A stretch of 64,000 nucleotides of DNA from an uncultured virus (IMG/VR IMGVR_UViG_3300030388_001635). Its lineage: Duplodnaviria; Heunggongvirae; Uroviricota; Caudoviricetes; Crassvirales. The stretch's first letter is position 1; the number at the start of each line of letters is the position of its first letter. Positions 8,927-38,700 of the stretch are shown here, one piece after another. The notes under the pieces are model-generated. The model searched no databases. It had not been told where the DNA came from and saw nothing but the letters and a program-made list of their open reading frames with translations. A program made the translations under genes and the position numbers. The stretch is taken from the IMG/VR virus record IMGVR_UViG_3300030388_001635; one strand, given 5' to 3'.

Positions 8927-9091
8927 TTAATTTTTTTTATAAGGAAAAAGTCTATTCAATGAATCTCTTCTGTTTTTACATCCACAATCTTTAACTCCAA
9001 CTGATGCAGCTACTTTTTTTACAGCTGTATCAATCCCTGTCGCTTTAGTTAGTTTCTGTATCGAATCTCCTAGTCCTTTACTTTTTGCCAC
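8927..9091 (-). CDS. Small basic protein with CGC motif (54 aa, GTG start)
   Basis: Read by hand: (M)AKSKGLGDSIQKLTKATGIDTAVKKVAASVGVKDCGCKNRRDSLNRLFPYKKN. Confidence 0.65.
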   Translation of the reverse strand: MAKSKGLGDSIQKLTKATGIDTAVKKVAASVGVKDCGCKNRRDSLNRLFPYKKN

Positions 9092-11295: not shown

Positions 11296-11727
11296 ATGAA
11301 TTATAATTATTTAAAATATTGGAGAGTAGTTCGATATTTCATAAAATCTAAATACAATTTAAAAACTAGCGAGCTTGAGATGTTATTGTTTTTACATTCA
11401 GAAAAATATTTTGGAAAAGATAAGTTTAAAGAATTTGATGAACTTCTTAGTTGGAATGTAAATAGGTTTGACCAATTACTACAAAAAGGATGGATAGAAG
11501 TTTTTAGAAAACGATTAGGTAAACACAAAACATTATATTCTTTAAGCTTTAAGGCTAATAAAGTTGTTGACTCTGTTTATAAAAAACTTAACGGTGCGCC
11601 ATTGCCTGAATCTCCAACATCAAATCCTTTATTTAAAACTAATGTTTCCTTTACAGATAAAGTGTATCGTAATAAAATAAAAGAAATGAATAGCTTTATA
11701 CGACAACAACGACATCATTCTCCTTAA
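11296..11727 (+). CDS. Putative winged-helix (MarR-like) DNA-binding protein
   Basis: LKTSELEMLLFL...FDQLLQKGWIEVFRKR...LYSLSFKA pattern; the lone plus-strand gene in the late arm. Confidence 0.55.
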   Translation: MNYNYLKYWRVVRYFIKSKYNLKTSELEMLLFLHSEKYFGKDKFKEFDELLSWNVNRFDQLLQKGWIEVFRKRLGKHKTLYSLSFKANKVVDSVYKKLNGAPLPESPTSNPLFKTNVSFTDKVYRNKIKEMNSFIRQQRHHSP

Positions 11728-11953
11728 GAATAGAACAAGTCATTCCTTCAAGGACCATTTGATATCCTGCTCTTTTATCGTAATAAATTATATCATCTTT
11801 TTTAATAGAACTAACCTCAGTACCGGGAGTTATAACTTTAGCCTTTGCATATCTAAATTGTTCCGCATCATGTTCTGATAATAAAAGTCCTGATGAGGTT
11901 TTCATTTCTTCTTTAATATCCTCTGCTATTATGTATTTATTAATTGCTATCAT
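11696..11953 (-). CDS. groES: Co-chaperonin GroES (Cpn10)
   Basis: KTSSGLLL mobile loop, AKVITPG, IKKDDIIYY and ILKENDVVVV; overlaps the end of groEL. Confidence 0.85.
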   Translation of the reverse strand: MIAINKYIIAEDIKEEMKTSSGLLLSEHDAEQFRYAKAKVITPGTEVSSIKKDDIIYYDKRAGYQMVLEGMTCSILKENDVVVVV

Positions 11954-13568
11954 TAGACTCGTATGTTCTTGCCATTGTTATAATAGCGTTAGTAGATAAA
12001 ATAGTAACTGCAACGGATACCGCATTTTGTAATGCGTTCTTTGTAACCTTCATAGGGTCTATAATCCCCATGTCAATCATATCACCGTATGTCTCATTCT
12101 TTACATCGTAACCAACTCCATCCGCTTTTGATTCTTGATAGTGTTGTGAGATTGTACTCCCTGCATTCTCTAAAATTTGTGAGAGAGGCGAATACAATGA
12201 GTTGTATAAAATTGCGTCAGCAATTTTTTTTGAAGGACTTACCGGAGTATTGTATATTGGTTTAAAGTTTTGTACTATATCATATAGAGCAACTCCACCT
12301 CCCGGTAGTATTCCTTCTAACATAGCTGAACGAACTGCGCAAACAGCATCATCAACTCTATCAAACAATTCTTTTTGTTCAATATCTGTTTGTCCTCCTA
12401 CATATATAACGCCTATCCCTCCGCTTAAAGAAGCGATACGAGATAATATAAATTCTTTATCTGATTTATTAGTTGCAATTTCATGTGCATCCCATAGCTG
12501 AGTAACCCTCTCGCTTACATCAACGCCATCTTTAGAAGACTTAATAAGTATACTAGATTCTTTTCCTATAATACATTTATCTGCATGACCTAAATCATCA
12601 AATGAAATTAAGGATAAATCGTCACCTGTTTTTTCTGAAAAGTATTTTGCTCCAACCGACACAGCTATGTCTTGCATAAGCTCATGTTGTTTGTATCCAA
12701 ACTGTGGAGGTCCTATAACACAAATCTGTAAACCATTCTTCACAACATTAGCAGCTAAAGTGTTTACTACGTTAACCGACATAGGAGCAATGATTAATAA
12801 TTTTTTTTGTTCGTTGATTATTGGTTTTAGAATATTTTCAATTGCTAAGACATTAGATATCTCAGAATCACTTACTAATACCTCAACATTGTCAAGTATA
12901 CACTCGTCTTTCTTTTGGTTATTAATAAACAAAGGAGATGTCCATCCTCTTTCTATCTTAACACCATTTGTTGTTTCGCTGTATGTTTTACTAGACTCAG
13001 ATTTTTCTACAGTAACGATACCGTTCTTACCTACTTCTTTATATGTATCCGCAATAACCTTACCTATAACCTTGTCATTGTTTGCAGAAATAATAGCTAC
13101 GTCAAGTAATCTTTTATTGGTAATTTTTTTAGAAGCTTTTTTTAATTTACTTATTACTATCTCAGTTTCGCTAACAACTTCTTTAAGAACCTCTGCTCTG
13201 TTTGTAGTATCATCCATTAGCGTATCGCCTTGCTTAACTAATGCTTCTGTTAATACTATTGCTGTTGTTGTACCGTCTCCTGCTGAGGTAGCTGTGTTGT
13301 CCGCAGCTTGCTTCATCATGCGTACTGCAAGATTTTCTACAGGGTCAACTAAATCTACAGCTTTAGCTACGGTTACACCGTCCTTAGTAACTGTAAGTCC
13401 ACCCGTAACATATGCAGATTCTATTAGTACTGTATTACCTCTCGGTCCTAATGTACTTTTAACTGCGTTAGCGATTTTTGTAATTCCGGAGATTAATTTA
13501 TTTCTCCCCGTTTCCCCAAAAGATAAGTCCTTCGGATTGAAGCCTGATGGCATTTGCATTTGATTCAT
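11940..13568 (-). CDS. groEL: Group I chaperonin GroEL (phage-encoded)
   Basis: VKSTLGPRG, VTKDGVTVA, AGDGTTTA, EGILPGGG and GIIDPMKVT; no C-terminal GGM tail. Confidence 0.97.
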   Translation of the reverse strand: MNQMQMPSGFNPKDLSFGETGRNKLISGITKIANAVKSTLGPRGNTVLIESAYVTGGLTVTKDGVTVAKAVDLVDPVENLAVRMMKQAADNTATSAGDGTTTAIVLTEALVKQGDTLMDDTTNRAEVLKEVVSETEIVISKLKKASKKITNKRLLDVAIISANNDKVIGKVIADTYKEVGKNGIVTVEKSESSKTYSETTNGVKIERGWTSPLFINNQKKDECILDNVEVLVSDSEISNVLAIENILKPIINEQKKLLIIAPMSVNVVNTLAANVVKNGLQICVIGPPQFGYKQHELMQDIAVSVGAKYFSEKTGDDLSLISFDDLGHADKCIIGKESSILIKSSKDGVDVSERVTQLWDAHEIATNKSDKEFILSRIASLSGGIGVIYVGGQTDIEQKELFDRVDDAVCAVRSAMLEGILPGGGVALYDIVQNFKPIYNTPVSPSKKIADAILYNSLYSPLSQILENAGSTISQHYQESKADGVGYDVKNETYGDMIDMGIIDPMKVTKNALQNAVSVAVTILSTNAIITMARTYESNDSN

Positions 13569-13590
13569 AGTGTATTGGATTTAATTTATA

Positions 13591-13598
13591 CAAAGGTA
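13591..13598 (-). promoter_or_regulatory. Bacteroidota -7 element (TACCTTTG) for groEL-groES
   Basis: CAAAGGTA on the top strand, 22 nt upstream of the groEL ATG. Confidence 0.6.
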
Positions 13599-13705
13599 AT
13601 AAAACTAATTGGAATTGAGAAACTGTGTTAATTATTTATGTTCCTTACTCTCTCTCTCTCTTTTACTGTGGACTACTTTTTTATTTTGAATTTGTTTTTG
13701 GTTTC

Positions 13706-13787
13706 AAATCAACATTTCAACATTATATTTTATAGTAGATTGATTATTAATTAATTACAATTTTTAAAATCAACACAAAATCAACAT
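13706..13787. repeat. CAACA iteron-like block A (AT-rich intergenic)
   Basis: AAATCAACATTTCAACA ... AAATCAACACAAAATCAACAT; the same layout recurs at 22991-23062. Confidence 0.6.
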
Positions 13788-13807
13788 GTTAATGTTAAGT
13801 ATGTAGC

Positions 13808-13841
13808 AAAAAAAAAGAGGACTAACTAAAGTCCCCTCTTT
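13808..13841 (-). terminator. Intrinsic terminator
   Basis: AAAGAGG/CCTCTTT stem with an A-run (U-tract on minus), downstream of ORF 13867-14088. Confidence 0.6.
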
Positions 13842-13866
13842 CCCAATCAACACACATTTCTTTTTG

Positions 13867-14088
13867 CTAATATCCGAATACATTTCTGCCATCCATTCTC
13901 ATCTTAGCTCTTTCAATACCGTCTGCAATACAATCTATTTTATATTGTTTTTTCATTTGCTGTCTATACATAGCTGCTTGAGCAATTCCTGTTTGACTAT
14001 CTTGTCTGTCATTAATTTCCCTACCGTTTTTTATATACAGTCCTTCCATTACGTTTGACTTCTTTGGGTCTTTCTTTAATTGTTTCAT
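13867..14088 (-). CDS. Hypothetical protein (73 aa)
   Basis: ORF track; A-rich start context; followed by a terminator. Confidence 0.65.
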   Translation of the reverse strand: MKQLKKDPKKSNVMEGLYIKNGREINDRQDSQTGIAQAAMYRQQMKKQYKIDCIADGIERAKMRMDGRNVFGY

Positions 14089-14552
14089 GACTTTTATTTT
14101 TTGCTAAGTTACAAATTTTTTTGAGATATGTGTAGTGTTTATGTTCCCCCCCATAATGCGACTGATGGCTGAGAAATGAAAACACTTTTTTTTTAATAGG
14201 GGGGGTAGTTATTCTATTAATCCCTATCAGATTTTTTTCAAAATTCGCTGCTGCCTAGCTCCCTAGTCTTACCTCCTGCTCTAAGCTACAGCTCTGTCTA
14301 TTGTACGCATTCACTCCTCTGTCATGACATGCTCTTGCCCTGCATATCCTCATCATTATCTCTATACTGAATATATAATTCTATTAAATGACCTAGACAT
14401 TTAAGAGAGCCTATCCTCCATGTGTAATCTAGGTAAATATATCGTAGGGAAATCTTCATGCATAACTTCCTCAGCCTCAACAACTTACAATGTAAGAAAT
14501 ACAAGCAATAAAAAATAATACCAAAAACATTAGTTATTGTCATAAGTTAGAC

Positions 14553-14560
14553 TATCTTTG
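14553..14560 (+). promoter_or_regulatory. Early promoter -7 element (TATCTTTG)
   Basis: Matches TAnnTTTG, 32 nt upstream of the first plus-strand gene. Confidence 0.7.
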
Positions 14561-14592
14561 AACCATATTAATTAATTAAAAAATAACACATT

Positions 14593-15540
14593 ATGAGAAA
14601 ATTTACAAAAATCAATCCTTATCAGAAGATTAATCAGATAGTCATAGACGGGCTACAGAAATCAGGTTTACAATGGTTCAAAGCATGGACAAATGCTAAA
14701 GGTGATATAGAACATCCAATCAATAGAAATAGCAAGCGAGCATACTCAGGTGTTAATGTATTCTTTTTAAATGCATCATGTGTGCAGGCAGGTTATAAAT
14801 CTAATGAATGGTTAACTTATGTCGGAGCTAAGAAATTAGGAGGTTCAGTAAGAAGAGGAGAGAAATCAACTTGTGTAGTTAGACAGCTGATATCCTTTAA
14901 GATAGATGGGAAATGGTACTTAGAAGCACAAATTCCCGCAGGCAGAACAAAGAAAGATGCTACTCAACTAGCATTTAATATAGCGACAAACAATGTCTTC
15001 AATGTAGACCAAATTGATGGAGTTGAAGCATGCAGAGAAATCATAGAAGGAGCTACAGAAGACAACTTAGATGTTAAACCAATTGATACATGTGAGAAGA
15101 TAATTTCTGACTATGTGTTATCATCTAATGTAAAAATTAGAGAGGTAAATTCAAATGAAGCATTCTACTCACCTAATAGAGACATGATACAAATGCCGAC
15201 AAAAAAACAATTTGCTGAGAAGACATCAGTTGATGATTATTACAAGACATTGTTTCATGAGATGCTACATTCAACAGGACATGAGTCTAGACTAAACAGA
15301 TTCAAAAACGATGGTAATCAAGAGGATAAGGTTTCTTATTCAAAAGAAGAGCTTGTTGCTGAGATTGGAGCTATGTATCTTGTATCGATTGCTAAGATAA
15401 ATCCACAAGACAATGAGAGAAATTCACAAGCCTATATCAACGGATGGATTAAACACATCAAGACAAGCCATGAGAAATCACTTGTATCAGCAATGACCCA
15501 AGCTCAGAAAGGTGTTAAACTTATCTTGACAAATAGTTAA
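14593..15540 (+). CDS. ardC: ArdC-like antirestriction/ssDNA-binding protein with zincin-like domain
   Basis: PINRNSKRAYSGVN, WLTY..AKKLGGSVRRGEKS, VFNVDQ, AFYSP..D.IQMP, HEMLHSTGHESRLNR and YSKEELVAEIGA. Confidence 0.92.
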   Translation: MRKFTKINPYQKINQIVIDGLQKSGLQWFKAWTNAKGDIEHPINRNSKRAYSGVNVFFLNASCVQAGYKSNEWLTYVGAKKLGGSVRRGEKSTCVVRQLISFKIDGKWYLEAQIPAGRTKKDATQLAFNIATNNVFNVDQIDGVEACREIIEGATEDNLDVKPIDTCEKIISDYVLSSNVKIREVNSNEAFYSPNRDMIQMPTKKQFAEKTSVDDYYKTLFHEMLHSTGHESRLNRFKNDGNQEDKVSYSKEELVAEIGAMYLVSIAKINPQDNERNSQAYINGWIKHIKTSHEKSLVSAMTQAQKGVKLILTNS

Positions 15541-15589
15541 CTGACGATTCCTGAAGGATGAAACGTCTCCTGTCGGAGACGTATTAACT
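15535..15589 (+). ncRNA. Type I hammerhead ribozyme HH1 (predicted cleavage after GUA, 15583)
   Basis: Stem I AGTTAA/TTAACT; core CTGACGA; stem II TCC-TGAA-GGA; GAAA; stem III CGTCTCC-TGTC-GGAGACG; then TA. Confidence 0.92.
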
Positions 15590-15615
15590 TAATAAAAATT
15601 AAAACACAAAACATT

Positions 15616-15957
15616 ATGAAAACTTTACAAGATTTATTTACAATTCAAGGAATAGCAACTAAGGAGTCAATGGAAGGAAGAGCATTAAGAACTAGCGAAA
15701 CAGCTAGTTACTCAGGGAACACATGGTTCTTTACTTTCTCAGGTCATGTCAATTCAATGAGCTGTGATTATTATCCTCTTGGATGGAAAAAACAGGAAGA
15801 CGATAGAGGAAAGCCAACTGCTTCTAACTCAAATGCGATAGTATATTCTATGGATGTTTATCTTACTGATGCAGGCATTCAATTGATGTATTGGTTCATC
15901 TATAAGCATTTAACTCCATCAGGACAGGGAGATGCAATTGTAGGACCAACTAGTTAA
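15616..15957 (+). CDS. Early hypothetical protein (113 aa), bounded by HH1 and HH2
   Basis: ORF track; its stop TAA lies within HH2 stem I. Confidence 0.8.
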   Translation: MKTLQDLFTIQGIATKESMEGRALRTSETASYSGNTWFFTFSGHVNSMSCDYYPLGWKKQEDDRGKPTASNSNAIVYSMDVYLTDAGIQLMYWFIYKHLTPSGQGDAIVGPTS

Positions 15958-16006
15958 CTGACGATTCGGTAACGATGAAACGTCTCCTGACGGAGACGTA
16001 TTAACT
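15952..16006 (+). ncRNA. Type I hammerhead ribozyme HH2 (predicted cleavage after 16000)
   Basis: AGTTAA CTGACGA T-TCG-GTAA-CGA-T GAAA CGTCTCC-TGAC-GGAGACG TA TTAACT; compensatory C-G to G-C change in stem II. Confidence 0.92.
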
Positions 16007-16023
16007 TAATTAAAAATAATATT

Positions 16024-16389
16024 ATGAATTCACATACAATGAAAGACCTAAAAAATAACGATGCAAAACCAATCATGGTACTAAATGTTTTAACTGAAGA
16101 GTACCAAGTATTTATGAATGGTTATGACCTAGAAACCAATCTTGTCTCAGCTATCATTTTTGCAACAGGAGACAGCAAGAAAATTTTAGATGATGACTAC
16201 AGAAATAAGATTAAAAAAGAAGCAAGGATAGAATACATGGTTACTAAGCTTGGAGCAAAGAAAGTTTACTCTCCTGAATTCGACATGATATCTTACTATC
16301 AAGTACAACATGAATTCTTCAAAGATGAGTCTATCAAAAAGCTACAACAACTTTCAAGCACAGCTACACATGATTATCTAAATAGTTAA
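16024..16389 (+). CDS. Early hypothetical protein (121 aa), bounded by HH2 and HH3
   Basis: ORF track; its stop TAA lies within HH3 stem I. Confidence 0.8.
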   Translation: MNSHTMKDLKNNDAKPIMVLNVLTEEYQVFMNGYDLETNLVSAIIFATGDSKKILDDDYRNKIKKEARIEYMVTKLGAKKVYSPEFDMISYYQVQHEFFKDESIKKLQQLSSTATHDYLNS

Positions 16390-16438
16390 CTGACGATTCC
16401 ACAAGGATGAAACGTCTCCTGTCGGAGACGTATTAACT
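16384..16438 (+). ncRNA. Type I hammerhead ribozyme HH3 (predicted cleavage after 16432)
   Basis: AGTTAA CTGACGA T-TCC-ACAA-GGA-T GAAA CGTCTCC-TGTC-GGAGACG TA TTAACT. Confidence 0.92.
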
Positions 16439-16458
16439 TAAAATTAAAATAACACATT

Positions 16459-16713
16459 ATGAAAAAAAGTAAAATTTATTTAGAAGCAACAGCAAGTTTT
16501 GTTGCAACAGCTTTTGTCAGCATTCTTGCAGTCAAAGTTATGTTCCATGTCTTTATTGATATAGACGGAATTGGAGATTGGATGCTATGGATATTCATGC
16601 TAGGTTTTAATCTATTCTTGATAGTCATTGTAGCTAATCTATTTTATGTTCATTACAATGAAGAGCTTACATCATTAAGGCGTAGAGATAATGATACAAC
16701 AACAAATTTATAA
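16459..16713 (+). CDS. Early membrane protein (2 TM helices)
   Basis: Two long hydrophobic segments; AAAATAACACATTATG start context. Confidence 0.75.
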   Translation: MKKSKIYLEATASFVATAFVSILAVKVMFHVFIDIDGIGDWMLWIFMLGFNLFLIVIVANLFYVHYNEELTSLRRRDNDTTTNL

Positions 16714-16715
16714 AC

Positions 16716-17135
16716 ATGGAAAAGAAAATAACAAAATTCGGAAAAGACTATTGGTCAGAAACAGGAGCTTACAGTAAAGAAGCTAAGGCATTAATAGATG
16801 ACCTAGTACCAAATATGGGAAGGGCTAAAACCAATCATGGTGAGCTACTGAGATGTATCACTAATCTTATCTATGAGCATGGAAACAATGGCAATGGTAA
16901 TACCTTTGGTCAATGGGACAAGCTTGAGAGTCATTGGGAAAAACAACTTGAGTACTTGATTCAAAACATGGATGATACCATCTCTGCGAAAGGATTAAAA
17001 GCTTTTGTTTCATCACTTAACAGAGACGAACATCTTAAGAAGTATAATCATAGATACTCTATGGTTATGGATAGTATAATGCATCAAATAATCACAACAG
17101 AAGACAGGCAAGTTACATTGTTCGATAGTGAATAG
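16716..17135 (+). CDS. Early hypothetical protein (139 aa)
   Basis: ORF track; LVP..G...T.HGELLR....L.YE..NNGNGN motif. Confidence 0.8.
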   Translation: MEKKITKFGKDYWSETGAYSKEAKALIDDLVPNMGRAKTNHGELLRCITNLIYEHGNNGNGNTFGQWDKLESHWEKQLEYLIQNMDDTISAKGLKAFVSSLNRDEHLKKYNHRYSMVMDSIMHQIITTEDRQVTLFDSE

Positions 17136-17154
17136 TGTATGACAGGACCAATTC

Positions 17155-17185
17155 TTGTCTAATTCAAATATTATTATTATATTTG
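17155..17185 (+). promoter_or_regulatory. Bacteroidota sigma-A promoter (TTG-N20-TATATTTG)
   Basis: TTG at 17155-17157 and TATATTTG at 17178-17185. Confidence 0.75.
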
Positions 17186-17198
17186 TAATATCAATAAG

Positions 17199-17225
17199 GA
17201 TTCCTGAGCATGAATCAAACTGCTC
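17199..17225 (+). ncRNA. Compact H-type pseudoknot
   Basis: GATTC (17199-203) pairs with GAATC (17212-216); loop GAGCA (17206-210) pairs with TGCTC (17221-225). Confidence 0.6.
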
Positions 17226-17277
17226 GCTGTAACAGAATATATTGTTCTGTCTGACGATTCCAAAAGGATGAAACAGC
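17226..17277 (+). ncRNA. Type III hammerhead ribozyme HH4 (predicted cleavage after GUA, 17231)
   Basis: GCTGT-A, stem I hairpin ACAGAATA-TAT-TGTTCTGT, CTGACGA, T-TCC-AAAA-GGA-T, GAA-ACAGC; stem III GCTGT/ACAGC is the open stem. Confidence 0.9.
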
Positions 17278-17294
17278 AAATTAAAAATAACATT

Positions 17295-17696
17295 ATGAAC
17301 ACACATGAATCAACTTTAAAAAAAACAAACCTGTGGGTAATCTTAGATGAAGAGAAGCTTTCGATAGTTAAGGGGAATGGACAGGCAATGAAGTTTAAAA
17401 CTGAGGAAGAGGCAGATAGATTCGCTAGCTCACACCTCCACCTTTGGATAGTAGTTAACATTAATTTCTTAGACAAATGGTGGAAGCATGAAGCAAGCCA
17501 TGACAAAGAGGGAAGATTATATGGACCATCAAAATATGATTTACCGATAGAGTTGGATGACCCTGAATTTACACCTCCATCTATTGAAGATACTTTAGAG
17601 TTAGTAGAAGAACAAGAGATGGAAGTTGGAAACGTAAAAGAATGGATAAGTGACGATGAGAGAGCTAAACGTAATCCTAATAAATTTAAAAAATAA
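17295..17696 (+). CDS. Early hypothetical protein (start revised to MNTHES...)
   Basis: The track start at 17268 lies inside HH4; the ATG at 17295 has the AAAAATAACATTATG context shared by its neighbours. Confidence 0.7.
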   Translation: MNTHESTLKKTNLWVILDEEKLSIVKGNGQAMKFKTEEEADRFASSHLHLWIVVNINFLDKWWKHEASHDKEGRLYGPSKYDLPIELDDPEFTPPSIEDTLELVEEQEMEVGNVKEWISDDERAKRNPNKFKK

Positions 17697-17706
17697 AACT
17701 TAATAA

Positions 17707-18222
17707 ATGAAAACAGAACAAATATATATAATTAATTATGTTGATAATTATGGTAATTCAGAGATAATGGGAGCTACTAATAATCCAAAAAAATGGATTA
17801 AAAAACGTAATGAAATCAGAGAGGATGAATATAAAGAAAAATTATCTGATTTTAAAATTACTAGGATTACGTTTAGTCCATTTAATTTTGATGAACTTCA
17901 TGCATTTGGATTACTAGGTACTCATAAAAAAGATAATGCATTTAAAGAATTATTTAAATTGTATGAATCTGTATCGGATGGAGCTGAAAAGTTAGAAGGC
18001 GAAAACGCCATGTTAACTAACCGAGTTGAGATGTATGAATTAAAGGTCGCTAAACTTAGACGTACAATAAGTACTACGATGAATAGCATAGAGATACCTA
18101 AGTGCTATGCAGAGGAAGGAGATGATACGTTTTATGACTATGAATTAATGCAAGAGCTATTTGACCAAGCAATGTGCGAGCTGAAAAACAAAGTCGCTAG
18201 ACTAACTAAAACAATTAAATAA
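17707..18222 (+). CDS. Hypothetical protein (171 aa)
   Basis: ORF track; tightly packed operon. Confidence 0.7.
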   Translation: MKTEQIYIINYVDNYGNSEIMGATNNPKKWIKKRNEIREDEYKEKLSDFKITRITFSPFNFDELHAFGLLGTHKKDNAFKELFKLYESVSDGAEKLEGENAMLTNRVEMYELKVAKLRRTISTTMNSIEIPKCYAEEGDDTFYDYELMQELFDQAMCELKNKVARLTKTIK

Positions 18223-18223
18223 A

Positions 18224-18562
18224 ATGGAAAACATAGATTTTATACAGATAATAAATGACCTTCGTAACTTACGAGACCAAACGCCATGTGATAAAGATTC
18301 ACATGGGCATTGTGGATGTGAACAGTTTGACGTCATCATTGATAAGCTTGATGAAAAGCAAACGCTAATGCACATGCATCATGAACATGTAGCCCTAATG
18401 AGTGGAATGAACTCAATGATTCTTAAAATTTCTTTCCTCATAGATATGGTAGAAGACAAAAAACATTCAGAAGATGATACATCTGAACACTACCTTTCTG
18501 ACGGAGAGACATTAGATATAGTAATTGATAAACTAAAATTAATAATAAATAAAAATAAATAA
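18224..18562 (+). CDS. Hypothetical protein (112 aa)
   Basis: ORF track; tightly packed operon. Confidence 0.7.
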   Translation: MENIDFIQIINDLRNLRDQTPCDKDSHGHCGCEQFDVIIDKLDEKQTLMHMHHEHVALMSGMNSMILKISFLIDMVEDKKHSEDDTSEHYLSDGETLDIVIDKLKLIINKNK

Positions 18563-18563
18563 T

Positions 18564-18746
18564 ATGGACGTAAAAGAATTAATTCAGAAATTAAAAAACC
18601 TTCCACAAGATTTACCTATTAGGATTATAAATATAGAAGAAGATTCTAATTTTATAAATGAATGGGTATATGAATTAGAGTGTTCAAAGACAGGGGAATC
18701 AGGTTTTGAACATTGTGGAGAAGTTAGATTACTAACCACAGAGTAA
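18564..18746 (+). CDS. Hypothetical protein (60 aa; MxVKELIxKLxxLPQD family)
   Basis: N-terminal motif common in small phage proteins. Confidence 0.7.
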   Translation: MDVKELIQKLKNLPQDLPIRIINIEEDSNFINEWVYELECSKTGESGFEHCGEVRLLTTE

Positions 18747-18747
18747 A

Positions 18748-18788
18748 GGATAGCATGGTGCAAGGGAAGTTCGATTCTTCCCTATCCA
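18748..18788 (+). ncRNA. tRNA-top-half-like element (acceptor-like stem plus T-arm, no anticodon arm)
   Basis: GGATAG/CTATCC outer stem stacked on GGAAG-TTCGATT-CTTCC; intergenic. Confidence 0.55.
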
Positions 18789-18820
18789 CGACATAAGTCA
18801 CATAAATAAAATTAAATAAA

Positions 18821-19093
18821 ATGGTAAAAGTAAAAATTAGTTTAAGACAAGTGTATTTCAAAACAACATCAGTTGAGATTGATATACCAAAAGACATCAC
18901 AACTTGGTACAGCGACATAGGTACTTATCTTAATGAAAATCCTGAGCTTTATGCAGACAAGGTTATGAAGAATTTAAAAGAGGAAGATTATGAAGAAGGC
19001 ATCGGTATGGAAACGGGAGCTTGGACAGATTCAGACATGGATGCAGAATGGCGTTTTGATTGCAAAGAACTAAAAACAGGAGGTCATGTCTAA
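18821..19093 (+). CDS. Hypothetical protein (90 aa)
   Basis: ORF track. Confidence 0.7.
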   Translation: MVKVKISLRQVYFKTTSVEIDIPKDITTWYSDIGTYLNENPELYADKVMKNLKEEDYEEGIGMETGAWTDSDMDAEWRFDCKELKTGGHV

Positions 19094-19322
19094 GCAATCT
19101 TTAAGTGAGTACCTAATCCAACAAGTGAAAGAGGTTAGGGAGATGAATGAGATACAGAAACGAGGTCTCATTGAAATGGAGGATTGGTTTAGAATTAGCA
19201 ATAGAACTGAAATAGATTCTAAACTAACTGAACTAATTCCGGAATATCGTAAGCCTAAAAGACATAAAAACGACATGACCAAGTATAAACTTAGCGAGTA
19301 TTATGTTAAGAGAAAATTGTAA
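19086..19322 (+). CDS. Hypothetical protein (78 aa)
   Basis: ORF track; overlaps the upstream stop. Confidence 0.6.
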   Translation: MSKQSLSEYLIQQVKEVREMNEIQKRGLIEMEDWFRISNRTEIDSKLTELIPEYRKPKRHKNDMTKYKLSEYYVKRKL

Positions 19323-19362
19323 TTGTCATTTGTTTTATCTAAATTTACACTAAACTTAAACT

Positions 19363-19545
19363 ATGTACATGAAAGAAATATTTAGATTGTATGAAAAATA
19401 CAAGAAAGAAACCAAGCATCTTAGTAAATTGTTGCAAGAAAAAGGATTGCAAACAAAAGAACCTGTCAAGAAAAATTGGGCAGAAATAGAAAAAAAATTA
19501 ATAGACGGGCATTGGTGGGTAAAATCCTCTGATGCATTAAAATAA
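19363..19545 (+). CDS. Hypothetical protein (60 aa)
   Basis: ORF track; possible variant promoter TTG-N20-TAAATTTA at 19317-19347. Confidence 0.6.
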   Translation: MYMKEIFRLYEKYKKETKHLSKLLQEKGLQTKEPVKKNWAEIEKKLIDGHWWVKSSDALK

Positions 19546-21086: not shown

Positions 21087-21665
21087 ATGAAATTAAAAAC
21101 AATCAACATCAAAGGTAAAAGTTATGTTCAAGTAAACGAAAGGCTTAAACATTTCAGAGAAATTTATCAACACAAGTTTGGATTAACAACTGAAATTCTA
21201 GAAATGACTGAAAAAGTTATTTTAATAAAGGCAACTATTACCTGTCAAGAAACAGGATTTGTTGTAGCAGAAGGAACAGCAATGGAATCTAAAGATGCAG
21301 GCTTTATCAATAAAGACTCACATATTGAGAACTGCGAAACATCAGCATGGGGTAGAGCTTTAGGGAATTTTGGAATAGGGCTAGACTCAAGTGTATCTTC
21401 TTATGAAGAATCTGCTAATTGGAATAAGCAACAAGACTTACAAGCAATCAAGATTCCTAAACCAACAAATACTTTAAAAGTAGAGAAGCCATCTGCGTTA
21501 CCTCTTTTAATTACTAAAGATATAGAAGCATTCATTCTTCCTTTTTTAGTTAAGAATCAAAAGAAAGGAATTAAATGGTGTGGAACAGAATTAAGAAAAT
21601 TGTATATTATTGATGCAGAACAAACACAAATAATATCAAAGGAATATCATAAACTAACTAAGTAA
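21087..21665 (+). CDS. Putative single-strand annealing recombinase (Rad52/Sak-like)
   Basis: IKGKSYVQVNERL, AEGTAME and ENCETSAWGRAL motifs; adjacent to an exonuclease. Confidence 0.65.
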   Translation: MKLKTINIKGKSYVQVNERLKHFREIYQHKFGLTTEILEMTEKVILIKATITCQETGFVVAEGTAMESKDAGFINKDSHIENCETSAWGRALGNFGIGLDSSVSSYEESANWNKQQDLQAIKIPKPTNTLKVEKPSALPLLITKDIEAFILPFLVKNQKKGIKWCGTELRKLYIIDAEQTQIISKEYHKLTK

Positions 21666-22390
21666 TGGATATTATAGCAATGCTTAAGGATGACAATGAA
21701 TATTACAATGGGATAGGTCAAGACTATTTATCCAATTCTAATATAGGTCAGTTATTAAAACATCCTGCATTATTTCAAAAATCAGAACCTGACAATAAAA
21801 ATTTCATGGTAGGTAGATATTTTCATCAACTAATTTTAGAACCTGAGAAAGCTCTAGAATTTCCTATTGTAGATGCATCATCTAGAAACACTAAAATATA
21901 CAAAGAGAATTGTGTTGATGGTGTTCCTCGTTTATTACAAAGAGAAGCTGATGAAGTTTTAGAATGGGTAAAAATTATATTTAAAAACAAAGACTTTAAA
22001 TCTCTTATTAATCATGCAAACAATCATTACGAAGTGCCTGCAATTGGAAAGATATTTGGAGCTATGTGGAAAGGTAAAGCTGATATAGTAACTGATGATT
22101 ATGTTATAGACTTAAAGACTACAAGTGATTTGCAAAAATTTACAGGTTATTCTTCAAGAGCTTATAACTATGATTCTCAAGCTTACATCTATCAGACTTT
22201 ATTTGGTAAACCAATGGTGTTCTTAGTAATAGATAAGACAACTAAACTAACAGGACTATATGGAGTATCTGAGGAGGCGTTAGCTAATGGAGAAGACAAA
22301 GTAAAAAGAGCTGTTGAGGTGTTTAATACATTTTATGGCGATGAACCTACAAAAAAAATTCAAGACTATTATGACACAGGCAATATCTAA
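21665..22390 (+). CDS. RecE-like PD-(D/E)XK exonuclease (DUF3799-like)
   Basis: LSNS, GRYFHQLILEP, KGKAD, VIDLKTT and YNYDSQAYIY. Confidence 0.88.
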   Translation: MDIIAMLKDDNEYYNGIGQDYLSNSNIGQLLKHPALFQKSEPDNKNFMVGRYFHQLILEPEKALEFPIVDASSRNTKIYKENCVDGVPRLLQREADEVLEWVKIIFKNKDFKSLINHANNHYEVPAIGKIFGAMWKGKADIVTDDYVIDLKTTSDLQKFTGYSSRAYNYDSQAYIYQTLFGKPMVFLVIDKTTKLTGLYGVSEEALANGEDKVKRAVEVFNTFYGDEPTKKIQDYYDTGNI

Positions 22391-29716: not shown

Positions 29717-32700
29717 TTATTTATTTCTTAACTTTTTCTTCAAATCATTTTTCGTTTTATTCACTTCTCTTTTTTTCCTATTTAATTCTTTTACTTTTTC
29801 TAACAAAACAGGATTGTTTAATGTTTCAATCATCCACATAGGAGGTAAAGAACTCTTTTTGGTTCTTCCGCCACCGGGACGTTGAGTTTTAGGAACGTTT
29901 AGAATGTCGTACAAATTTTTATCAATCTCACCTTCTCCTGTTAACATTCTTGCTGTTCCTTCTACAGGGTCAAATTGGAATCCCATTCTTAATTCTAGGA
30001 AAGGACGTATAGCTGCAATGTAATCTTCTTCATTTAAACCTTTAACAGACTCTTTTACTATTCTTAATAAAGGTTCTACAGCTCCTGATTCAGAATAACC
30101 TGAATTTCCTTTTTCACCCATCATATAATTTATACCTGATTCAGCTGCTGCTCCTAATATTGGAACTCTAGTAAGCTGAGTAAATCCTGTCATTTGTCTT
30201 TTAATAGTTTTAATAGCTTCTAATTTCTCATCCTCATCACCCTTAGTAAGCATTAACATGTTAGCAGTAGCTTGGAATGCCATGTTTGCTACAGCTCCTG
30301 ATATTATAAACCCTCTGATATCTGTTTTAGATGGCATCTTACCGTTTCTAATGCTACGCATAATGTTTCTCATATTAACAGCTGTGTTATTCATCTGTAA
30401 AAACATTGTACTACCAAACATTGTAAGCAATCTTAACAGACCTGCTCTTCTTTGTAGACCACCTTTATCCATATCTCTACGAGATTGCTGAGTAAGATTG
30501 TATTCTACAAATTCTAATGCAGCCTCTGTCTCTGTCATTCCATTTGCAATGTCTTGATTATAATTAGCCATGTAACCCATAACACCCATAACATCTCCAA
30601 TAGATGTTCCTGCTCCAATAAAAGATTTAACATAACCTTTTAATTCTGCTGTAGTATATGTTTTTCCGGCAATTGTAATTGTACCATCCGGATTTAAAAA
30701 TTTACCTACAGCTGCTCCTAATCCTTTTCCTGATTTATTTCCTGTCTCTAGTTCTACAAGGTTTTTACCTGACAAAGCCTCTAGCATTCTTTGTTCAAAT
30801 CCTGCCGATATTTTTTTAGCTGTTTTAATTCCACCTTCCATTCCTGCAAGTGTTAAAGCTAACGTTTGAGTATAACGACCAAGAAACATAATTGCATCAA
30901 CAGCTGTCGCAGGTATACCTAAAGTAGCCTTATCAACTGCTTGATAAGTTAAATTTCCTTTGTATCTAAACTTTTTAAACGCTTCAATAAACGAAGATGC
31001 TTGTTTAGGAATTTGCCATACTTTTAAACCTAAAACATAACTAACAAACGCACCTTGAATTGTGTTAACTAACTTAGAGTCTAACGAATTTGTTTCAAAA
31101 TTATCTCTCCCGTTAATTGCAAAATTTAACATTTCATTATTTAATGATGTTAATCCCGATTCTTTTAACAAAAGTTTTACAGATGGTATTTTTAATATTC
31201 TATTTAATTCAGGGACTAAATCTGCATAAGCTTTATATCTTTCTGTAGATTCTATGTGTGAGTCTAGCATATCAGTAAAAGATGTAGCAGGATTTATTAT
31301 AGAATTTCTGCTTCTCATTTTTAATGAGCTTGGAGACTCTGCAGTAAATGTACTAAACACATCAGATTGAAATCCTATAGATTTCTCTTCAGATGTTGGG
31401 TCTAGCTTAGTAGATAAAGGAAAATAGTTTTCTATCTTATCTAAATTTACGTCATTGTTTCTTACATAGACTTCATTAATAGAATCATAACTGTCATTAG
31501 TTAAATAGTCTACTACTATATCTGCAAAACCTATCACATCATTACCTAAATGTTCTTCTATAGCTTTAAATTTTTCCTCTGTAAATCCTTGCTGTATTAG
31601 TCTAGCACGAACTTCAGGATTTTTAGCTATAGCATATATATAAACCAATTGGTCATTAGTAGGATTGTTAAATGTTCCATCAGGATTGTTTTCCGTAACA
31701 TCAATACCTGAAAGAATCATTGGATTCTTTTTAAGTAATGCAAGTTTAAAGTTTTGATAAGCCTTGTTTACATCTAGATTACCCTTGTTTTTAAAACCTG
31801 CTCTTTCGGCAAGTTTATTTACATATCTGTTAACGTCTCTAACACCTTCTTCTCTTTTAAAGTTAGCTTTACTTAAAGGTTTCTGAAAGTATTTAGTAAA
31901 GAATTCGTTTTTTCTACCATCTAATATGTTAAATAAAGTTTGAGTATTAGAAATAATACTATCGAAATATCTAGAAAGCATTACACCCAAATTATTTGTT
32001 CCGCTTTCAGTTTTAATAAAAGGACTAAAAATACCATCTGCAAAATCCTTCATAAACTTTAAAAAACCTTTATCTATAAACTGTTGTATATTAGATTTTC
32101 TACTATCTTCTACTTCTCTATCAGTTTTTAAACCTTTTTCTCCATACAAAAATGGATAATTTGTTTCTATAGATTCGTCTGCTTCAGCTTTTATTTTTGC
32201 AGCTCTCTCTTTTCTCTTCAATCTTCTTTTTAATAGTTCTTGCCTAGACTGTTTAGCTTCTTGTTTTATTCCTTTAAATATATCATTAAGTTCTTCTATG
32301 GATTTCGTTTCTAAATTATCATAACGAGCATAGATTTCTGCTTCAGCCAAAAGTATAGAATCAGCTTTGTTTAAAGACTTGCCTTCTTTTAAATTAGCTT
32401 CTCTAGTTAGAGCTTCTTCTATCTCTACTTCAAGAGCTGCCAACTCTACTTTTTTCTGTATGAAAGCTTCTCTGCTTAAATTTAAAGCTTTATTTAAAAC
32501 TTTAAAATACTCTTGACCTCTATACTCTAAACTACCTGATTTAGGTTTTTTATTACTACGTTTAATCTTTGTTTTTTTCTTAACGTAATCTTTAATAGTT
32601 TGTAAAAAAGTTTGTTTGTCTTTTACTTTTATCTCATTAACTATTTCTTGAACCCTCAATACCTCAGCAACAAAATTCACATCATCAACTTCAGCAATAG

Positions 32701-35700
32701 TTTTTAATATACTTTTTAGTTCTGTTTTATTTACTTTGCTAACAGTTGTTAAAGCTTTTCTAATATAATTTGACAATCTTTTTCTTATATCTTTTGAAAC
32801 TTTTGTTGAGTCTTTACGACCTTTTAACTCAGCTAATATAACATCTATTTCTTGTTGAACAGCTTGATTTGCCTTAGTGCCTAACATAGCATCATACTCA
32901 GCTATCATTTGTTTTTGATTTACAAGAGGTTGTTCTTTAAACAACTTGTTGTCTTCTAAATCTTTTTTTCTAGCTGCTCTTTCTTCTTTTCTATATTTTA
33001 AAGCCTCCGCTTTAAGCTTTTCATTTTTAAACGTTTTACCACCATCTTCGGAAACTAATACTTTTCTATTGGCTTCAGGAAGTGTTTTTAATCTTTTTAA
33101 TCTTAACTCTTCTACTTGATTAAAAATCTGCTCACCCACATTAATACCACCTTTAGCATTTGTAAAAGCTGTTGGTATAGCTGTTTCCATTAATGCTAAA
33201 ATTTGTTCCTCATTTAATTTTAGTCTTTTTCTTAATACAGCCGCAACAACATCATCAGGCATAGCCATTTCTCTACCTCTAATAACCATTTGTTCGGCTG
33301 TTAATCCTTGCTTAAATGCTGCTTCAGGATTTTTTAATTGCTTTTGTTGTATGTTAGATAATTCTATTTCTTTGCCGCTAAAAATATCAGCCAATGCACT
33401 TCCAATAAACTCATCTAAAGTTATATCTTGAATTTCTGCCTCACTATAATCTTTAGACATTTTAAACTCATCCATGATTAACTTCCACATCCCTAACAAC
33501 CATTCTTTAAATTTAGCTTGTAATGATGCGTTAGCAATAGTTTCGCCTTTGTTTCCAATTAAAATAGCCATAGCTTCATCTACAGCTTTCTTCTGATTTC
33601 CATCAAACTTTTTTAATTGGTCTTTATATGTTTTAGTTTTCTTAACCAAAACAGAACCTCTTTCATATAATAATTTACCTTTCTTTGTTGTTTGTATATA
33701 GTCAGTCCAAACATGTCCCATCTCATGAATAGAAGTGTTAAACAGTTCACTTTCACTATTGTGAACATCAGGGTTTATATATATATCTCCATTTACTGTA
33801 ACACCGTATACGGTTTGATTTCCTTTTGAGTATTGCATAACACCCTCAGAATTCATTACAATTTTAAATGTTTCTGAATCAGTATAAATTGTTGTTCCGG
33901 GAAAAGATATATTTAAAAAGTTGTTTAACTTATTTATATTACTTTGAGAACCTGCTTTAGCTCCAATATAATCTTTAGATGGTATACCAATTCCTAATCC
34001 TGTTTGATTAGTTCTTAATTGTTTACCTGTAACTTTTTTACCTTGTGATTCTTTTTCAACTAAACTACCCATTGCTTTTTTATATGCTATAGGATAAGCT
34101 TTCTCCATAGACACAGGGTTTGTAAGGACACCCATAGATTTTCCTCTTACACCATATTTATAATTTGGATGTGTTGTTTCTACTACTCCCGGATTTAAAA
34201 CATCTACACCAACTATAGCAACGATACTTCCTTCAGGAACATCTTTCATTTGTTTGTCAGTAATTATTTCAGCAATACTTGCAATGTTAAGTAACTCTCT
34301 AGCACTTTCATCTTGGTTTTCTAGCAATGCTGTAGTAACAGATGAAAGTTCAGAAACAGCACCTGCTTTTTTAGTTTGTCCGGGTTTATTAGGTGTTCCG
34401 TATCCTATAATATTCATAAGATTAACTCTAGCTCCAAGTCCTAATTTTTTTACAAATTTAGGAGCAACTACATCATCTATAGATTGAATATCTTTTCCTT
34501 CTAACAATGAAATTATATCATTAAAAGGTTTCTTTTTATTCGCTTTATCTCTTCGGCTTATAATTTCTGTCTTCAAAGCTTCCAAAGCCTTTACTTTGTT
34601 TTCTTCAGGTATCTTTGTTAAATTATCAGCTAACACTCTAAACATAGCTTCATTAGAAATAATTCCGCTTTCAGCCATCTTAACAACATTAACAGGAACT
34701 AATCCATTGTACTCAGGATTGTTAGCCCAAAACTCATCTATTTTTGGTTTGTTAGCTTGATAAATAAATTCAGCATTTTGCAACATATTTTCTGCTTTGG
34801 CTTTTGTCGTTCCTGCCCAAGCTGCTTGTTCATTTCCTGTAGTACCATTAAAACCTATTGACCCTTTTAAATTATCAATAGTTGTACCTGTGTTTGGATT
34901 AACCACATTACCTGTAGTAAGTTGGTCAGATATTGTAAACGCTGCAGGTATACCATCAATAAGTTCTATAGAAGTTACTTGTAAGTCTGTATCTGTTCTA
35001 TTGTTTAACTCTTGTACATCTAACTTAACATTACTTTCTTCAGTCTCAATTTTAGTATTTACATTGTCGCTTTCTAAAAGATTTATTCTTTGTGTAATCG
35101 CCTCTATCTCATCTCTATCAGGTTCAACTTTGTTTTCATCTTTTAATCTAAAATCAACTTTATCATCCAAACCTTCTTCCATTTCTTTTACTTGTTGGTC
35201 GAAAATCTCTTTACTTTCAGCACTAACTTCTTCTGTAGTTGATTCTGTAGACTTCTTTTCTGTTATTGTTTCAGATGTCTTTTCTGTCAAATAAAGTCCT
35301 TGTGACATCATCAGCTCTTGATTCATTAGGGCTTGGCTAGACTTAAATATTTTACCTCCTACAACCGTAGAGTCTTCTATAATTTCAGTTACTGTAAAAG
35401 AAGTGCCTTGTTTATTCATTATAACATCACCAACTTTTATATCATCAATATTCTTTTTTGATACAAACTTACCTTTTTTAAAAATTTCAGTTTTAAAACT
35501 ATTATCATCTACAACTGTAACCTTACTACCTTTTTTCTTTCTATCTTTTTTTAATTTTGCTAAATATTCTTTCTCTTGAGAAGCTAATTCTTCTGTAGTT
35601 ACTTCTTCTGTAGTTGATTCAGTAGACTCAAGCATAGCATCATATTTTGCGTTGATTTTGTCTATTTCTGTCTCAACAAATACAAAAGGTCTTCTTCTGC

Positions 35701-38700
35701 TCTCTCCGTATCTTTTATTTAACGCATCAACTTTTTGTTGATGGCTTTTATCTGTTTTACCTAAAGCTACTAAGAATTTTTGTGCTTTTCCTTTTTCAGT
35801 TTGAGTCATGAATGTATCTGACAAAATTTGCTCTCTTAAACTTATAAAGATTGGGTCACTAACTTTTCCGTCAGTTTCATCAGTTGTAAAGTAATCATCT
35901 ATTTCAGCTTTTCTATCTGCTTCTATTTGCGTTTCACTTTGTTGGGTAACTTTTTTAGGTCCACCGGGTACTCCTTCTGCCACTTCTTCAGGAGTTTTGG
36001 TTTGAACTTCGCTAGGTATCTTAATTGAGCTTTGCTTTTGATTGGCATAATCTTCAAGTTTAAATGATTCTTGTTCTATTCCTAACATTTTCTTTACAAC
36101 GTAATCGTTTAGCGCAGTTGCTAAAGCATCGTTGTCCTTAATTGTAAATGCAGGATTGCTTTTTATTAATTTTTCTTTTGACATTTTGTCAACTGCTTTC
36201 AGAAAATCTTCAGGAGTTTCATAAGTGCTTGTTCCAATTTTAAATTGATTAAAAGACTTTACATCAAACTTACTTTCGTTTAATGGGTCTAATTTTATAT
36301 TATCAACCTTTGTTCCTGTTGGTCCTTGAATACCTTCTATAGTTTTTGTATTTTCATCAAACTTATCAGATAGCTTACCTGTTAAAATTAGTTCACTAAG
36401 CTCTGCATTAATACTTTTAATATTACTTTTAAATACCTCACGCCTATTTATAGTTGAACCAAGATTATTTTGAGCTTCTATTAACCTCATAGCTCTAGCA
36501 ACAACTGCAGGGTCAGCATTTTCTCCTAACAAATCTGTAGCAGATTTTAAAATACCTAAATTATCTGTTATAGCTTTTCCTTTAGATGCATCTATTTTCC
36601 CTAATTTAACGTTTTTATTTACAAAATTTAATATTTGTTCAGGAGTTGCATCTGTATAAGTTGCTAAAAAAGCAGGGTCTGTAAAGTCAGCTAATAATTT
36701 ATTTCTTCTTTTATTACTATTAAGTAATGTCATATTAATAACAGCATTACTTCCTTGATTTCCAAATGCACCACCCATTTCTGCAGCAATTTCTTTAAAG
36801 TCAAGTTCATTTCTTCCTGTTCCAAATAAGATTTCGTTTTCTTGTGCAAGTGTCTCACCTACACCTTCACCTATTGGGTCAAGAACTAATCTCTCAGCTG
36901 TTATTAAACCTGCTGTTTTTAACACACCTTTTGATGTTATTGCAAATTTTGCAGGCATAAATAATCTACCTGCTAAACCTGCAGTAAAATAATCAATTAT
37001 AGCAATTGGTATTCCTCTTGCATGACCTCTTGCTCCACCTACATCCCAAACTTTTTGGTCTTGTAAAGCTAAAGCTACTTCGTCAGGATTATATATATCA
37101 TAACCCGTTTCAGTAATAGCCTCAAGAATAGAATTGGTATATTCCATTGCGTATGTTGTAGCAGCAAAACCAACCCTTAAACCATAACCTAAACCTACTT
37201 TAGCACCTATTGCTATAGTTAGAGGATTAGCACCCAAAGCTCCGTAACCCGCACCTGTTCCTGCGCCAATAACTCCTGACATAGGAATTAATTGAGCTCC
37301 ATATGGTAACATCATTGCAATACTTTTACTTGCTAATTGAGTACTCCATTCAAGAGGGTCACTAGCAACAACATCCCAAGATTCTCTAAAGCCTTGTGAA
37401 TCCTCCCAATTGAGCATAGTTTTACTTTGATTGCCTGTTTTGTTATTCATTGCATCAACAATATGTAATGCTATATCCATAACATCATCATCATCACCAC
37501 CCCCAATTAAATCAACACCCATAGCGTATTGTAATATAGAATTAGCAGCATGACCTTGTTGTAAACCATTTGCAAACTCTTCCGTAAAACCCTCAAAATT
37601 ATCTACAAAATCGTTTTGAATTTTTTTATTCTCCATGCGATTTAAATACAGCTGTGAGTTTTCATAAATCATCGCTGCATTTTTTCTTTCAAAATTTAAA
37701 TTTAAAGTTTGAGTTTGTAATTGTTGCATTTCAACAAATTCTTGTCTTGTTGTGTTCTCATTTATGGCTTTAGCTAAATTCATTGGTTTTTCACCATACC
37801 TTATTAAAGCTTGTTCATCTATTACACTTTGCTCTTTTTTAACTGTATCGTTAATAAATACTGCTTCCGATACTTTTGCTTGTTCTTTTTTTCTTAAGTA
37901 TAAATCAAATTCATTTCTTGTATCTTTTACTTTATTGTTAAAAGCAGTCCCAAATAATGCAGTTTCTTGTGTTTTTAATCTAGCTAACTCTTCTTGTATA
38001 TCATCTCTTAACTCTCCATTGACATATAAATCCCCATATTGTGCTTGTCTTTTTAAAGACAAATCTTTAATACGATTAACATCATCACCCATTGTTGAAT
38101 CTTTGAAATCACCAAACTCATCTCTCTGTAATTCTCCATCTAAAAGGTCTTCAATAAAATCAATCCTATCTCTAGTTTCTTGATAAATATTAAATGATTG
38201 TGAAATTTGTTGATAATCTAATCCTCTTTCTTTATAAAATTGTTGAGCCTCAACATCTATTGTGTTTACACCTTTCCATGAACCGTCTGCAAATGCATTA
38301 GCCTCTTCTTGGGTATCAAAAGTAAATACTTCATTTCTTTCTTTAGCTAAATCTAAAGCCTTCTTACCTTTTAACTCTATCCAATTATTTGCATAACTAG
38401 CTTGATTTTCATCGTCTACAGGAAATAAAGTAGGAGCAACTAAAAATTTACCGTCTTCTTCAAATGTTCCCATTAAATGAGAAGATACAGTACCATTTTT
38501 ATTGACACGTCTTCCACTTCTCATGTTTTGAGCTTTTAATGAATTACCAATAAAATCCATGTTTTTATCAGAATCAACTATTTCGCTAGAATTAAGCATT
38601 AAAAAGTTTTTTAAATCAGCTACTTCGTCATCAGCACCAACGCCAAACAAAGGGTCTATATCTATAGTAATTTCTGCATTACCGTCTGAAGTACGAGCCA

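Follow-up and report, generated by a model that had tools for sequence, protein, structure and literature searches.

Clustered hammerhead ribozymes that flank single genes or short gene blocks were described in phages and prophages in 2011 (Perreault et al., 2011; PMC3088659). Three tandem arrays were shown to cleave in that work, one of them beside ardA, and a triple array beside ardA was reported from Agrobacterium tumefaciens (PMC3088659). The function of such clusters in phages has been called unresolved (PMC6765202; PMC10085705). At the DNA level, the PeSL cassettes of the T4-type phages RB49 and phi1 provide a second point of comparison. These consist of a promoter plus a terminator in about 100 bp; DNA mini-circles were shown for them, and a crossover in the AT-rich part was proposed (Arbiol et al., 2010; PMC2839356). 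Hammerheads are also used by retrozymes and by viroid-like and Zetavirus-like circular RNAs (PMC13725137; PMC6765202).

The array described here lies in an uncultured virus (IMG/VR record IMGVR_UViG_3300030388_001635), of which a stretch of 64,000 nucleotides, the window, was analysed. Judged by its sequence, it belongs with the clustered phage hammerheads of 2011: several hammerheads stand between small genes of varying identity, an antirestriction gene is adjacent, and the natural U10.1-U11.1 mismatch is present. It differs from those clusters in belonging to a marine phage of putative flavobacterial hosts, in adjoining ardC instead of ardA, and in having near-identical type I copies, a stop codon inside stem I and a pseudoknot-like element before a type III ribozyme. 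In addition, no unit-precise indels are reported in the part of the 2011 paper available to us (PMC3088659), although the window motifs may already be listed in its Dataset S1. The layout has thus been known since 2011; what is added here is a unit-precise indel, the stop-in-stem layout and the pseudoknot.

Pfam and PHROG searches identified the window as DNA of a tailed dsDNA phage, with a portal, a terminase, a crAss-type muzzle protein and GroEL/ES. GroES and GroEL are encoded by the phage itself, within 11696-13568, and a 3310-aa protein (29717-39649) at the end of the structural block matched no Pfam or PHROG family. Phages of Flavobacterium, Cellulophaga, Tenacibaculum or Maribacter accounted for 86 of the 87 terminase matches, at identities of at most 46%; the best match, at 76% identity, was an uncultured phage. 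Since the sequencing runs that matched the window were marine, these terminase matches suggest flavobacteria as the host. The window DNA can be regarded as real, because 17 DNA runs contained 96-98% of its words (11 of the 17 were flagged as possible sources). Looking up the locus by sequence and by place gave no match.

The array is located 3' of an ardC-like antirestriction gene (14593..15540, plus strand; 315 aa), which matched ArdcN (E 8e-21) and MPTase-PolyVal (E 3e-29) in Pfam, as well as phrog_7245 (E 2e-63). This gene is the first in a plus-strand block of small ORFs that continues into recombination and replication genes, and the operon carrying the array is probably early. The earlier note on this DNA had attributed an annealase/exonuclease pair to the phage, and both members were identified 4-5 kb downstream of the array. 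The first (21087..21665, plus strand; 192 aa) is, by its predicted structure (pLDDT 78), a single-strand annealing protein of Rad52/Sak-like fold. Its model gave Z values of 8.1 with RAD52, 7.4 with Mgm101 and 7.2 with Sak of phage 80a, and Foldseek E values of 3e-4 to 8e-4; the Z values are middling, yet annealases head both structural match lists. Its sequence profile matched no solved structure by sequence. The second gene (21665..22390, plus strand) encodes an exonuclease VIII-like PD-(D/E)XK exonuclease (DUF3799) according to Pfam and PHROG. An inverted repeat of 27 nt (17665-17691 and 17850-17876; 93% complementary, 158 nt apart) lies across the junction of two ORFs.

A motif scan of the plus strand found three type I hammerheads of 55 nt each, HH1 (15535..15589), HH2 (15952..16006) and HH3 (16384..16438), with predicted cuts after 15583, 16000 and 16432 respectively. 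All follow the scheme AGTTAA-CTGACGA-T(stem II)T-GAAA-CGTCTCC(4)GGAGACG-TA^TTAACT. The fourth motif, HH4 (17226..17277, plus strand; predicted cut after 17231), is of type III and has the same U-U core. The core CUGANGA, GAAA and the UH cleavage site are intact in all four copies, which also have in common a GUA triplet, a U-U mismatch at 10.1/11.1 and a 3-bp stem II. The type I copies are identical to one another at 50, 50 and 53 of 55 nt (longest exact matches 20, 19 and 39 nt) and show a compensatory change in stem II, TCC/GGA vs TCG/CGA; the stem II allele of HH2 is common to many relatives. By their core and covarying helices, the four motifs can be assigned to hammerhead ribozymes of types I and III, and the array is predicted to cleave. 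The descriptor scan gave 4 motifs in the window vs none in each of 30 dinucleotide shuffles, which bears out the earlier description of near-identical 55-bp hammerhead repeats that bound units of 417 and 432 nt. The motif scan found no minus-strand hammerhead in the window.

The Rfam models gave no match in the window at the gathering score and no hammerhead at E<=10 in 13500-19500. When applied to 18 ribozyme-rich loci, the same models returned 2 hammerheads only, both of the G-C type, and therefore miss the U-U subclass. The motif scan in turn misses ribozymes with a stem II mismatch, such as the one seen by eye after the ORF1 homologue in locus L077. Thus, all motif counts given here are lower bounds.

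Across viral loci, these ribozymes appear to be under selection. A core pattern without any pairing requirement matched in 43 viral loci; the stem II arms were complementary in 28/28 distinct matches, and stems I and III were present as well in 27 of them. With another pattern that likewise did not require stem II pairing, the arms were complementary in 15/15 distinct matches. Among 124 distinct motifs in a wider set (loci L001-L099 and the window), 73 were of the U-U type. These had U at position 1.7 in 70 cases and a UA cleavage site in 66, and the non-U-U motifs had a UC site in 39 of 51. In the U-U motifs, 70 of 71 tetraloops II ended in A. The U located seven nt after the cut contacts the loop II adenine (PMC9217987), and the joint pattern of U1.7 and loop II A fits selection on this tertiary contact. 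Between L079 and L087, core mismatch type and cleavage site switch together. The U10.1-U11.1 mismatch is a reported natural variant, with Pseudomonas phage PaP3 among the active variants (PMC3088659). The PaP3 motif has the same U-U core and, as read off the primer label, was presumably the RNA tested in that study.

These regularities bear on whether the motifs could be weakly active or inactive and be retained as repeats that are selfish or neutral, or solely as recombination joints made up of a stop and a leader. A U-U mismatch at the most conserved pair is compatible with such decay, and so is a weak stem I, which is a 6-bp AU-rich helix next to a GC-rich 7-bp stem III hairpin. At 37 C, the pairing of stem I was predicted at 0.26-0.57 for HH1 and HH3 and at <=0.04 for HH2 in 69-nt windows, and at <=0.01 in a 241-nt context, by an energy model that leaves out the core and tertiary contacts. 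In HH2 (15953-15973), the 5' strand of stem I has an alternative partner in the widespread stem II allele, whose loop is GTAA; the competing hairpin formed in this way is predicted to lie 3.6 kcal/mol below the ribozyme fold. The motifs are also patchily distributed. The nearest annotated relative by terminase (L099) has no hammerhead in the matching region, and among 9 ardC loci that were retrieved through protein homology and had a full ORF, only 1 had an adjacent hammerhead, so that the array is dispensable. Every core residue is nevertheless intact, and the U1.7, UA-site and loop II preferences of the U-U motifs are what selection on the U1.7-loop II contact would leave (PMC9217987); this reading is accordingly rated as improbable.

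Cleavage at the predicted sites would release three units. Unit 1 (15584..16000, plus strand; 417 nt) comprises a leader, ORF1 and the body of HH2, and unit 2 (16001..16432, plus strand; 432 nt) a leader, ORF2 and the body of HH3. Each has a single ORF behind an A-rich leader, as had been stated before: ORF1 (15616..15957, plus strand; 113 aa) follows a leader of 32 nt, and ORF2 (16024..16389, plus strand; 121 aa) one of 23 nt. Unit 3 (16433..17231, plus strand; 799 nt) extends from a type I cut to a type III cut and contains two ORFs (16459-16713 and 16716-17135); joining its ends rebuilds no ribozyme. ORF1 belongs to a small phage family, with 3 database matches and distant homologues in L076 and L077. 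ORF2 had 6 database matches, itself included, and no homologous locus was found for it in viral contigs. Neither protein matched a Pfam or PHROG family, and nothing usable on their function was obtained from Atlas.

The type I ribozymes coincide with gene ends. In all three window copies, the gene upstream (ardC, ORF1 and ORF2 in turn) stops at a TAA that makes up the final 3 nt of the stem I 5' strand. The sequence TAGTTAACTGA at 15534-15544, 15951-15961 and 16383-16393 provides stops in all three frames; it includes the 8-bp palindrome AGTTAACT. Related motifs start with TAGTTAA in 22 of 31 cases. In a pattern-selected, not independent set of 30 GTTAA-type motifs whose upstream gene could be seen, the stop was TAA in 13, TAG in 9, the core TGA in none and an earlier codon in 8; in 22/30, a TAA or TAG ends the gene no more than 7 nt from the core. 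An upstream stop lies within 18 nt of the core in 40 of 49 distinct type I motifs, and an ATG follows 13-38 nt past the ribozyme in 37 of the 49; type III motifs lie at least 34 nt from the stop. The layout also occurs in a cultured virus, Cellulophaga phage phi19:3 (L096:9005), in which gp051 ends at 9004 and an unannotated type I core starts at 9005. The literature within reach, which excluded most subscription papers, contained no report on hammerheads in flavobacterial phages or on stops in stem I.

One possible consequence is a translation-coupled switch, in which a ribosome terminating at the stem I stop melts the ribozyme and cleavage comes to depend on upstream ribosome traffic. The stop positions in the window, the failure of any of the 30 genes to read on to the core TGA, the weakness of stem I and the identical arrangement in phi19:3 are all in line with such coupling. 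However, the search patterns themselves selected for TAA before the core, compact gene packing would look alike, and type III motifs occupy equivalent slots at their greater distance from the stop. Coupling is thus judged unlikely, and the same applies to any resulting effect of upstream ribosome traffic on how stable the message of the next gene is or how well it is translated. The phi19:3 layout would make translation-coupled cleavage testable in a laboratory system.

Bacteroidetes leaders are reported to have adenines at -3 and -6 (PMC6847099), and the window leaders have A at -3 in 3/3 and at -6 in 2/3. A TANNTTTG -7 element at the head of the plus-strand block (14553..14560, plus strand) follows the consensus given in PMC6847099 and is a candidate Bacteroidetes-type promoter; it is weak by itself, because the window contains 98 such octamers. 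Inside the three repeats, no plus-strand sigma-70 promoter, terminator or TANNTTTG was detected. The sigma-70 promoter count in the window equals the shuffled mean.

The type III ribozyme is adjoined by an H-type pseudoknot-like element (17199..17225, plus strand), recognized by pattern and covariation. All 10 distinct matches to this pattern (window, L012, L041, L043, L066, L084 twice, L090, L093 and L095) directly adjoin a type III hammerhead. In their alignment, 79/79 cells are paired and 3 pairs are doubly changed, the five-base helix 2 being partly fixed by the search pattern. The motif had no Rfam match. An AT-rich stretch of about 55 nt before the pseudoknot (17148-17198) contains a full TTG-N20-TATATTTG match to a Bacteroidetes-type promoter and is missing in the close relatives L084 and L093. 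The promoter-like site itself (17155-17185) was rejected, as it is absent from 9/9 relatives. Following a type I cut, the upstream piece ends in a GC-rich hairpin. Type III cleavage by itself would give no such end, and here the pseudoknot may shield the upstream product at its 3' terminus. Structured 3' ends would suit linear messages.

The hammerheads probably serve to process mRNA and, at the same time, as recombination joints comparable to PeSLs. They would punctuate a plus-strand, probably early, operon, and each would cut the long transcript in cis to give separate linear messages. Every downstream piece would start with a 5'-OH on an unstructured A-rich leader of 23-32 nt and Bacteroidetes type, and every upstream piece would end in a cyclic phosphate and a structure, namely the stem III hairpin (type I) or the pseudoknot before type III. 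Comparable processing is known from the T7 early transcript, which is cut by RNase III, and from RiboJ insulators. In these systems too, site-specific cuts just upstream of translation starts yield messages with defined 5' ends, whereas the cuts proposed here would be protein-free, would leave 5'-OH and cyclic phosphate ends, and would be natural instead of engineered. In DNA, the 55-bp element would be a ready-made gene boundary, since it brings both a leader and a stop codon. The copies would then recombine over their short homology, probably through the Sak-like annealase and exonuclease of the phage, and accessory genes would be added, removed and swapped over evolutionary time. We infer the co-transcription of the units, the effects on stability and the choice of recombining enzymes from this arrangement.

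Comparison with relatives supports exchange of cassettes at the ribozymes. A metagenome scan for the stem I type of the window gave 18 loci, one of which (L080) is identical to the window and not independent. Relative to L067 and L088, locus L091 has one extra ribozyme-bounded unit of 387 nt, and it aligns to them up to the end of ribozyme 2 and again from the start of ribozyme 3. The single ribozyme of L088 is chimeric, with the body of L091 copy 2 and the leader of L091 copy 3, and the indel junction therefore falls within 13 shared nt around the cut. Neighbouring genes also change at ribozymes between L083 and L086, L082 and L083, L086 and L092, and L078 and L090. Similarly, L084 and L093 share with the window the region from the ORF at 16716 to HH4 (84% identity) and have other units upstream. 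The expectation of the earlier note that relatives would have different ORFs between the ribozymes was thus confirmed, with genes gained, lost and swapped there. Its suggestion of exchangeable cassettes holds for these relatives but not for the units it had singled out, as no relative of the window phage that has gained or lost unit 1 or unit 2 came to light. Nor are these genes obligate cassettes, since the ORF1 homologues have a 3' ribozyme only (L077) or none (L076). The intergenic stretch before the homologue in L076 (3890-3960) is GC-richer and hairpin-like, with no hammerhead or Rfam match.

As in PeSLs, a conserved intergenic repeat flanks ORFans, and one-gene indels, here in relatives, leave a single chimeric element. 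The repeat differs from a PeSL in being a 55-bp ribozyme with neither promoter nor terminator inside it. By analogy, the array works like a PeSL at the DNA level but is not one. The array adds comparative evidence for ribozymes as gene-exchange joints of a PeSL-like kind. Integron cassettes were also considered; their attC cores read RYYYAAC and GTTRRRY and are associated with the IntI integrase. This assignment was rejected, as the repeats end in AGTTAAC and ATTAACT and no tyrosine recombinase was present among the ORFs scanned.

The ribozyme alleles form a patchwork. In nine pairs of loci (four gene families) in which the downstream gene had changed, stem III was kept with the upstream gene in 7, both exceptions involving a distant homologue; in the background of unrelated pairs, stem III reached at least 90% identity in 54 of 406. 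Of 3 pairs, 2 kept stem III together with the downstream gene, each of them with the commonest allele, and alleles of stem II are exchanged without regard to either flank. Between L079 and L087, about 3465 positions contain 14 differences, and a ribozyme stretch of 35 nt accounts for 5 of these. The three window copies share one stem III that was found in no other locus, and their upstream genes are unrelated, which suggests homogenisation at the DNA level. Such a patchwork would be the expected trace of short-homology DNA recombination and conversion.

Units might instead move via an RNA intermediate: the cut-to-cut RNA would be ligated again or copied by a reverse transcriptase and would then enter the cut site of a different ribozyme. 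The one clean indel does have its junction in 13 nt spanning the cut, stem III follows the upstream gene well above background, and two ORF2 homologues with different tails also end in NS. Against this, no reverse transcriptase was found in the ORFs scanned, stem II alleles move on their own, stem III stayed with the downstream gene in two of three pairs, and the private stem III of the window points to DNA. In addition, homology continues past the cut on its 3' side through the AT-rich leader, which would attract ordinary crossovers, as proposed for PeSLs. An RNA route is therefore considered extremely unlikely. A broader version treats the cut-to-cut unit as a mobile module of marine flavobacterial phages, which is released as RNA, can form a coding circle and, itself or as a DNA counterpart, re-enters genomes at cut sites, with the ribozymes setting both message boundaries and exchange points. 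The position of the indel junction on the cut site would fit such a module, as would the link of stem III to the upstream gene, but this version is regarded as very unlikely. Linear messages and DNA-level exchange remain the preferred explanation.

The earlier note had also proposed circular RNAs that code for protein. A back-reaction of the ribozyme, or RtcB of the host, would close the released units into stable circular mRNAs, and the 5'-OH and cyclic phosphate ends left by hammerheads can indeed be ligated. When either unit is joined to itself, an intact ribozyme is formally rebuilt, as had been claimed, with 6/6 stem I pairs. This re-formable junction is automatic, however, because any two copies with the same stem I give it. 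A re-formed hammerhead would also tend to reopen the circle. Tandem ribozymes do yield circles in retrozymes (PMC13725137). RtcB was detected in Bacteroides thetaiotaomicron, the search control, and could possibly be provided by the host; none was found in 6 related virus records, and no RNA ligase or reverse transcriptase was seen among 61 distinct ORFs scanned.

The junction is not kept in relatives. In all loci, 24 of 75 adjacent ribozyme pairs, some of them near-duplicates, are of mixed type. Among 29 type I-type I units, full stem I cross-pairing was retained in 15, one pair was lost in 4, and at most 4 pairs were kept in 10. Circular folds of units 1 and 2 are 59% and 51% paired (z -2.1 and -0.5), and the probability of stem I forming across the circle junction was 0.00 and <=0.09 respectively. 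The longest stop-free run on the circle is 127 and 136 codons, and the ORFs end at ordinary stops. The length of both units is a multiple of three, a candidate signal that was discarded because 26 of 75 units, as expected by chance, share it.

Retrozymes are highly self-paired non-coding circles, dispersed in many copies, with a reverse transcriptase partner. The window array resembles them and viroid-like RNAs in its tandem hammerheads about 400 nt apart, its ligatable ends and its unit lengths. In contrast, its units are mostly ORF and only partly paired, and they occupy one locus in 64 kb with no reverse transcriptase in the ORFs scanned, in a window that may lack part of the genome. Unlike viroid-like and Zetavirus-like RNAs, it has no rod-like fold, no stop-free ORF and no antisense ribozyme. 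An assignment to retrozymes or viroid-like RNAs was rejected on fold, coding content and the polarity of the ribozymes. Circular or spliced products were considered for the 2011 phage arrays and none was detected, according to a statement given there as data not shown (PMC3088659). Natural RtcB-made circles in bacteria were not found among the literature matches listed.

Sequencing runs provided a further view of the array. Three RNA runs contained 5-7% of the window words, in scattered pieces of 151-244 nt. Unit 1 was represented among the pieces listed by one contig of about 177 nt (15788-15962), and depth was zero over 16012-16512. No joints at the ribozyme repeats were present among 15 of 37 listed (contigs only; one DNA run). 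In a relative, an RNA contig stops at position 17251, which is 19 nt beyond the cut of HH4; this was rejected as a sign of cleavage, as contigs cannot show ends. DNA run X12, which was not among the flagged runs, gave exact contigs over 13940-15583 and 15952-16432. Their ends at 15583 and 16432 match predicted cuts but come from the assembly graph, which breaks there at k=31: HH1 and HH3 last differ at base 15553, and 30 further nt lead to 15583. Protein-coding circular RNAs are thus not supported by the relatives, the folds or the 2011 arrays, and they are held to be highly improbable. A DNA phage that naturally makes coding circles would be an important finding if true, but the present evidence does not lead there.

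Three details lend themselves to testing, namely the stop inside stem I, the U-U core tied to the UA site and U1.7, and the pseudoknot tied to type III. Much larger arrays also occur in other phages, with about 12 hammerheads in L058 (164-6467) and about 5 in L075 (4771-6127), mostly with one gene per unit and with AGGAGG-type leaders.
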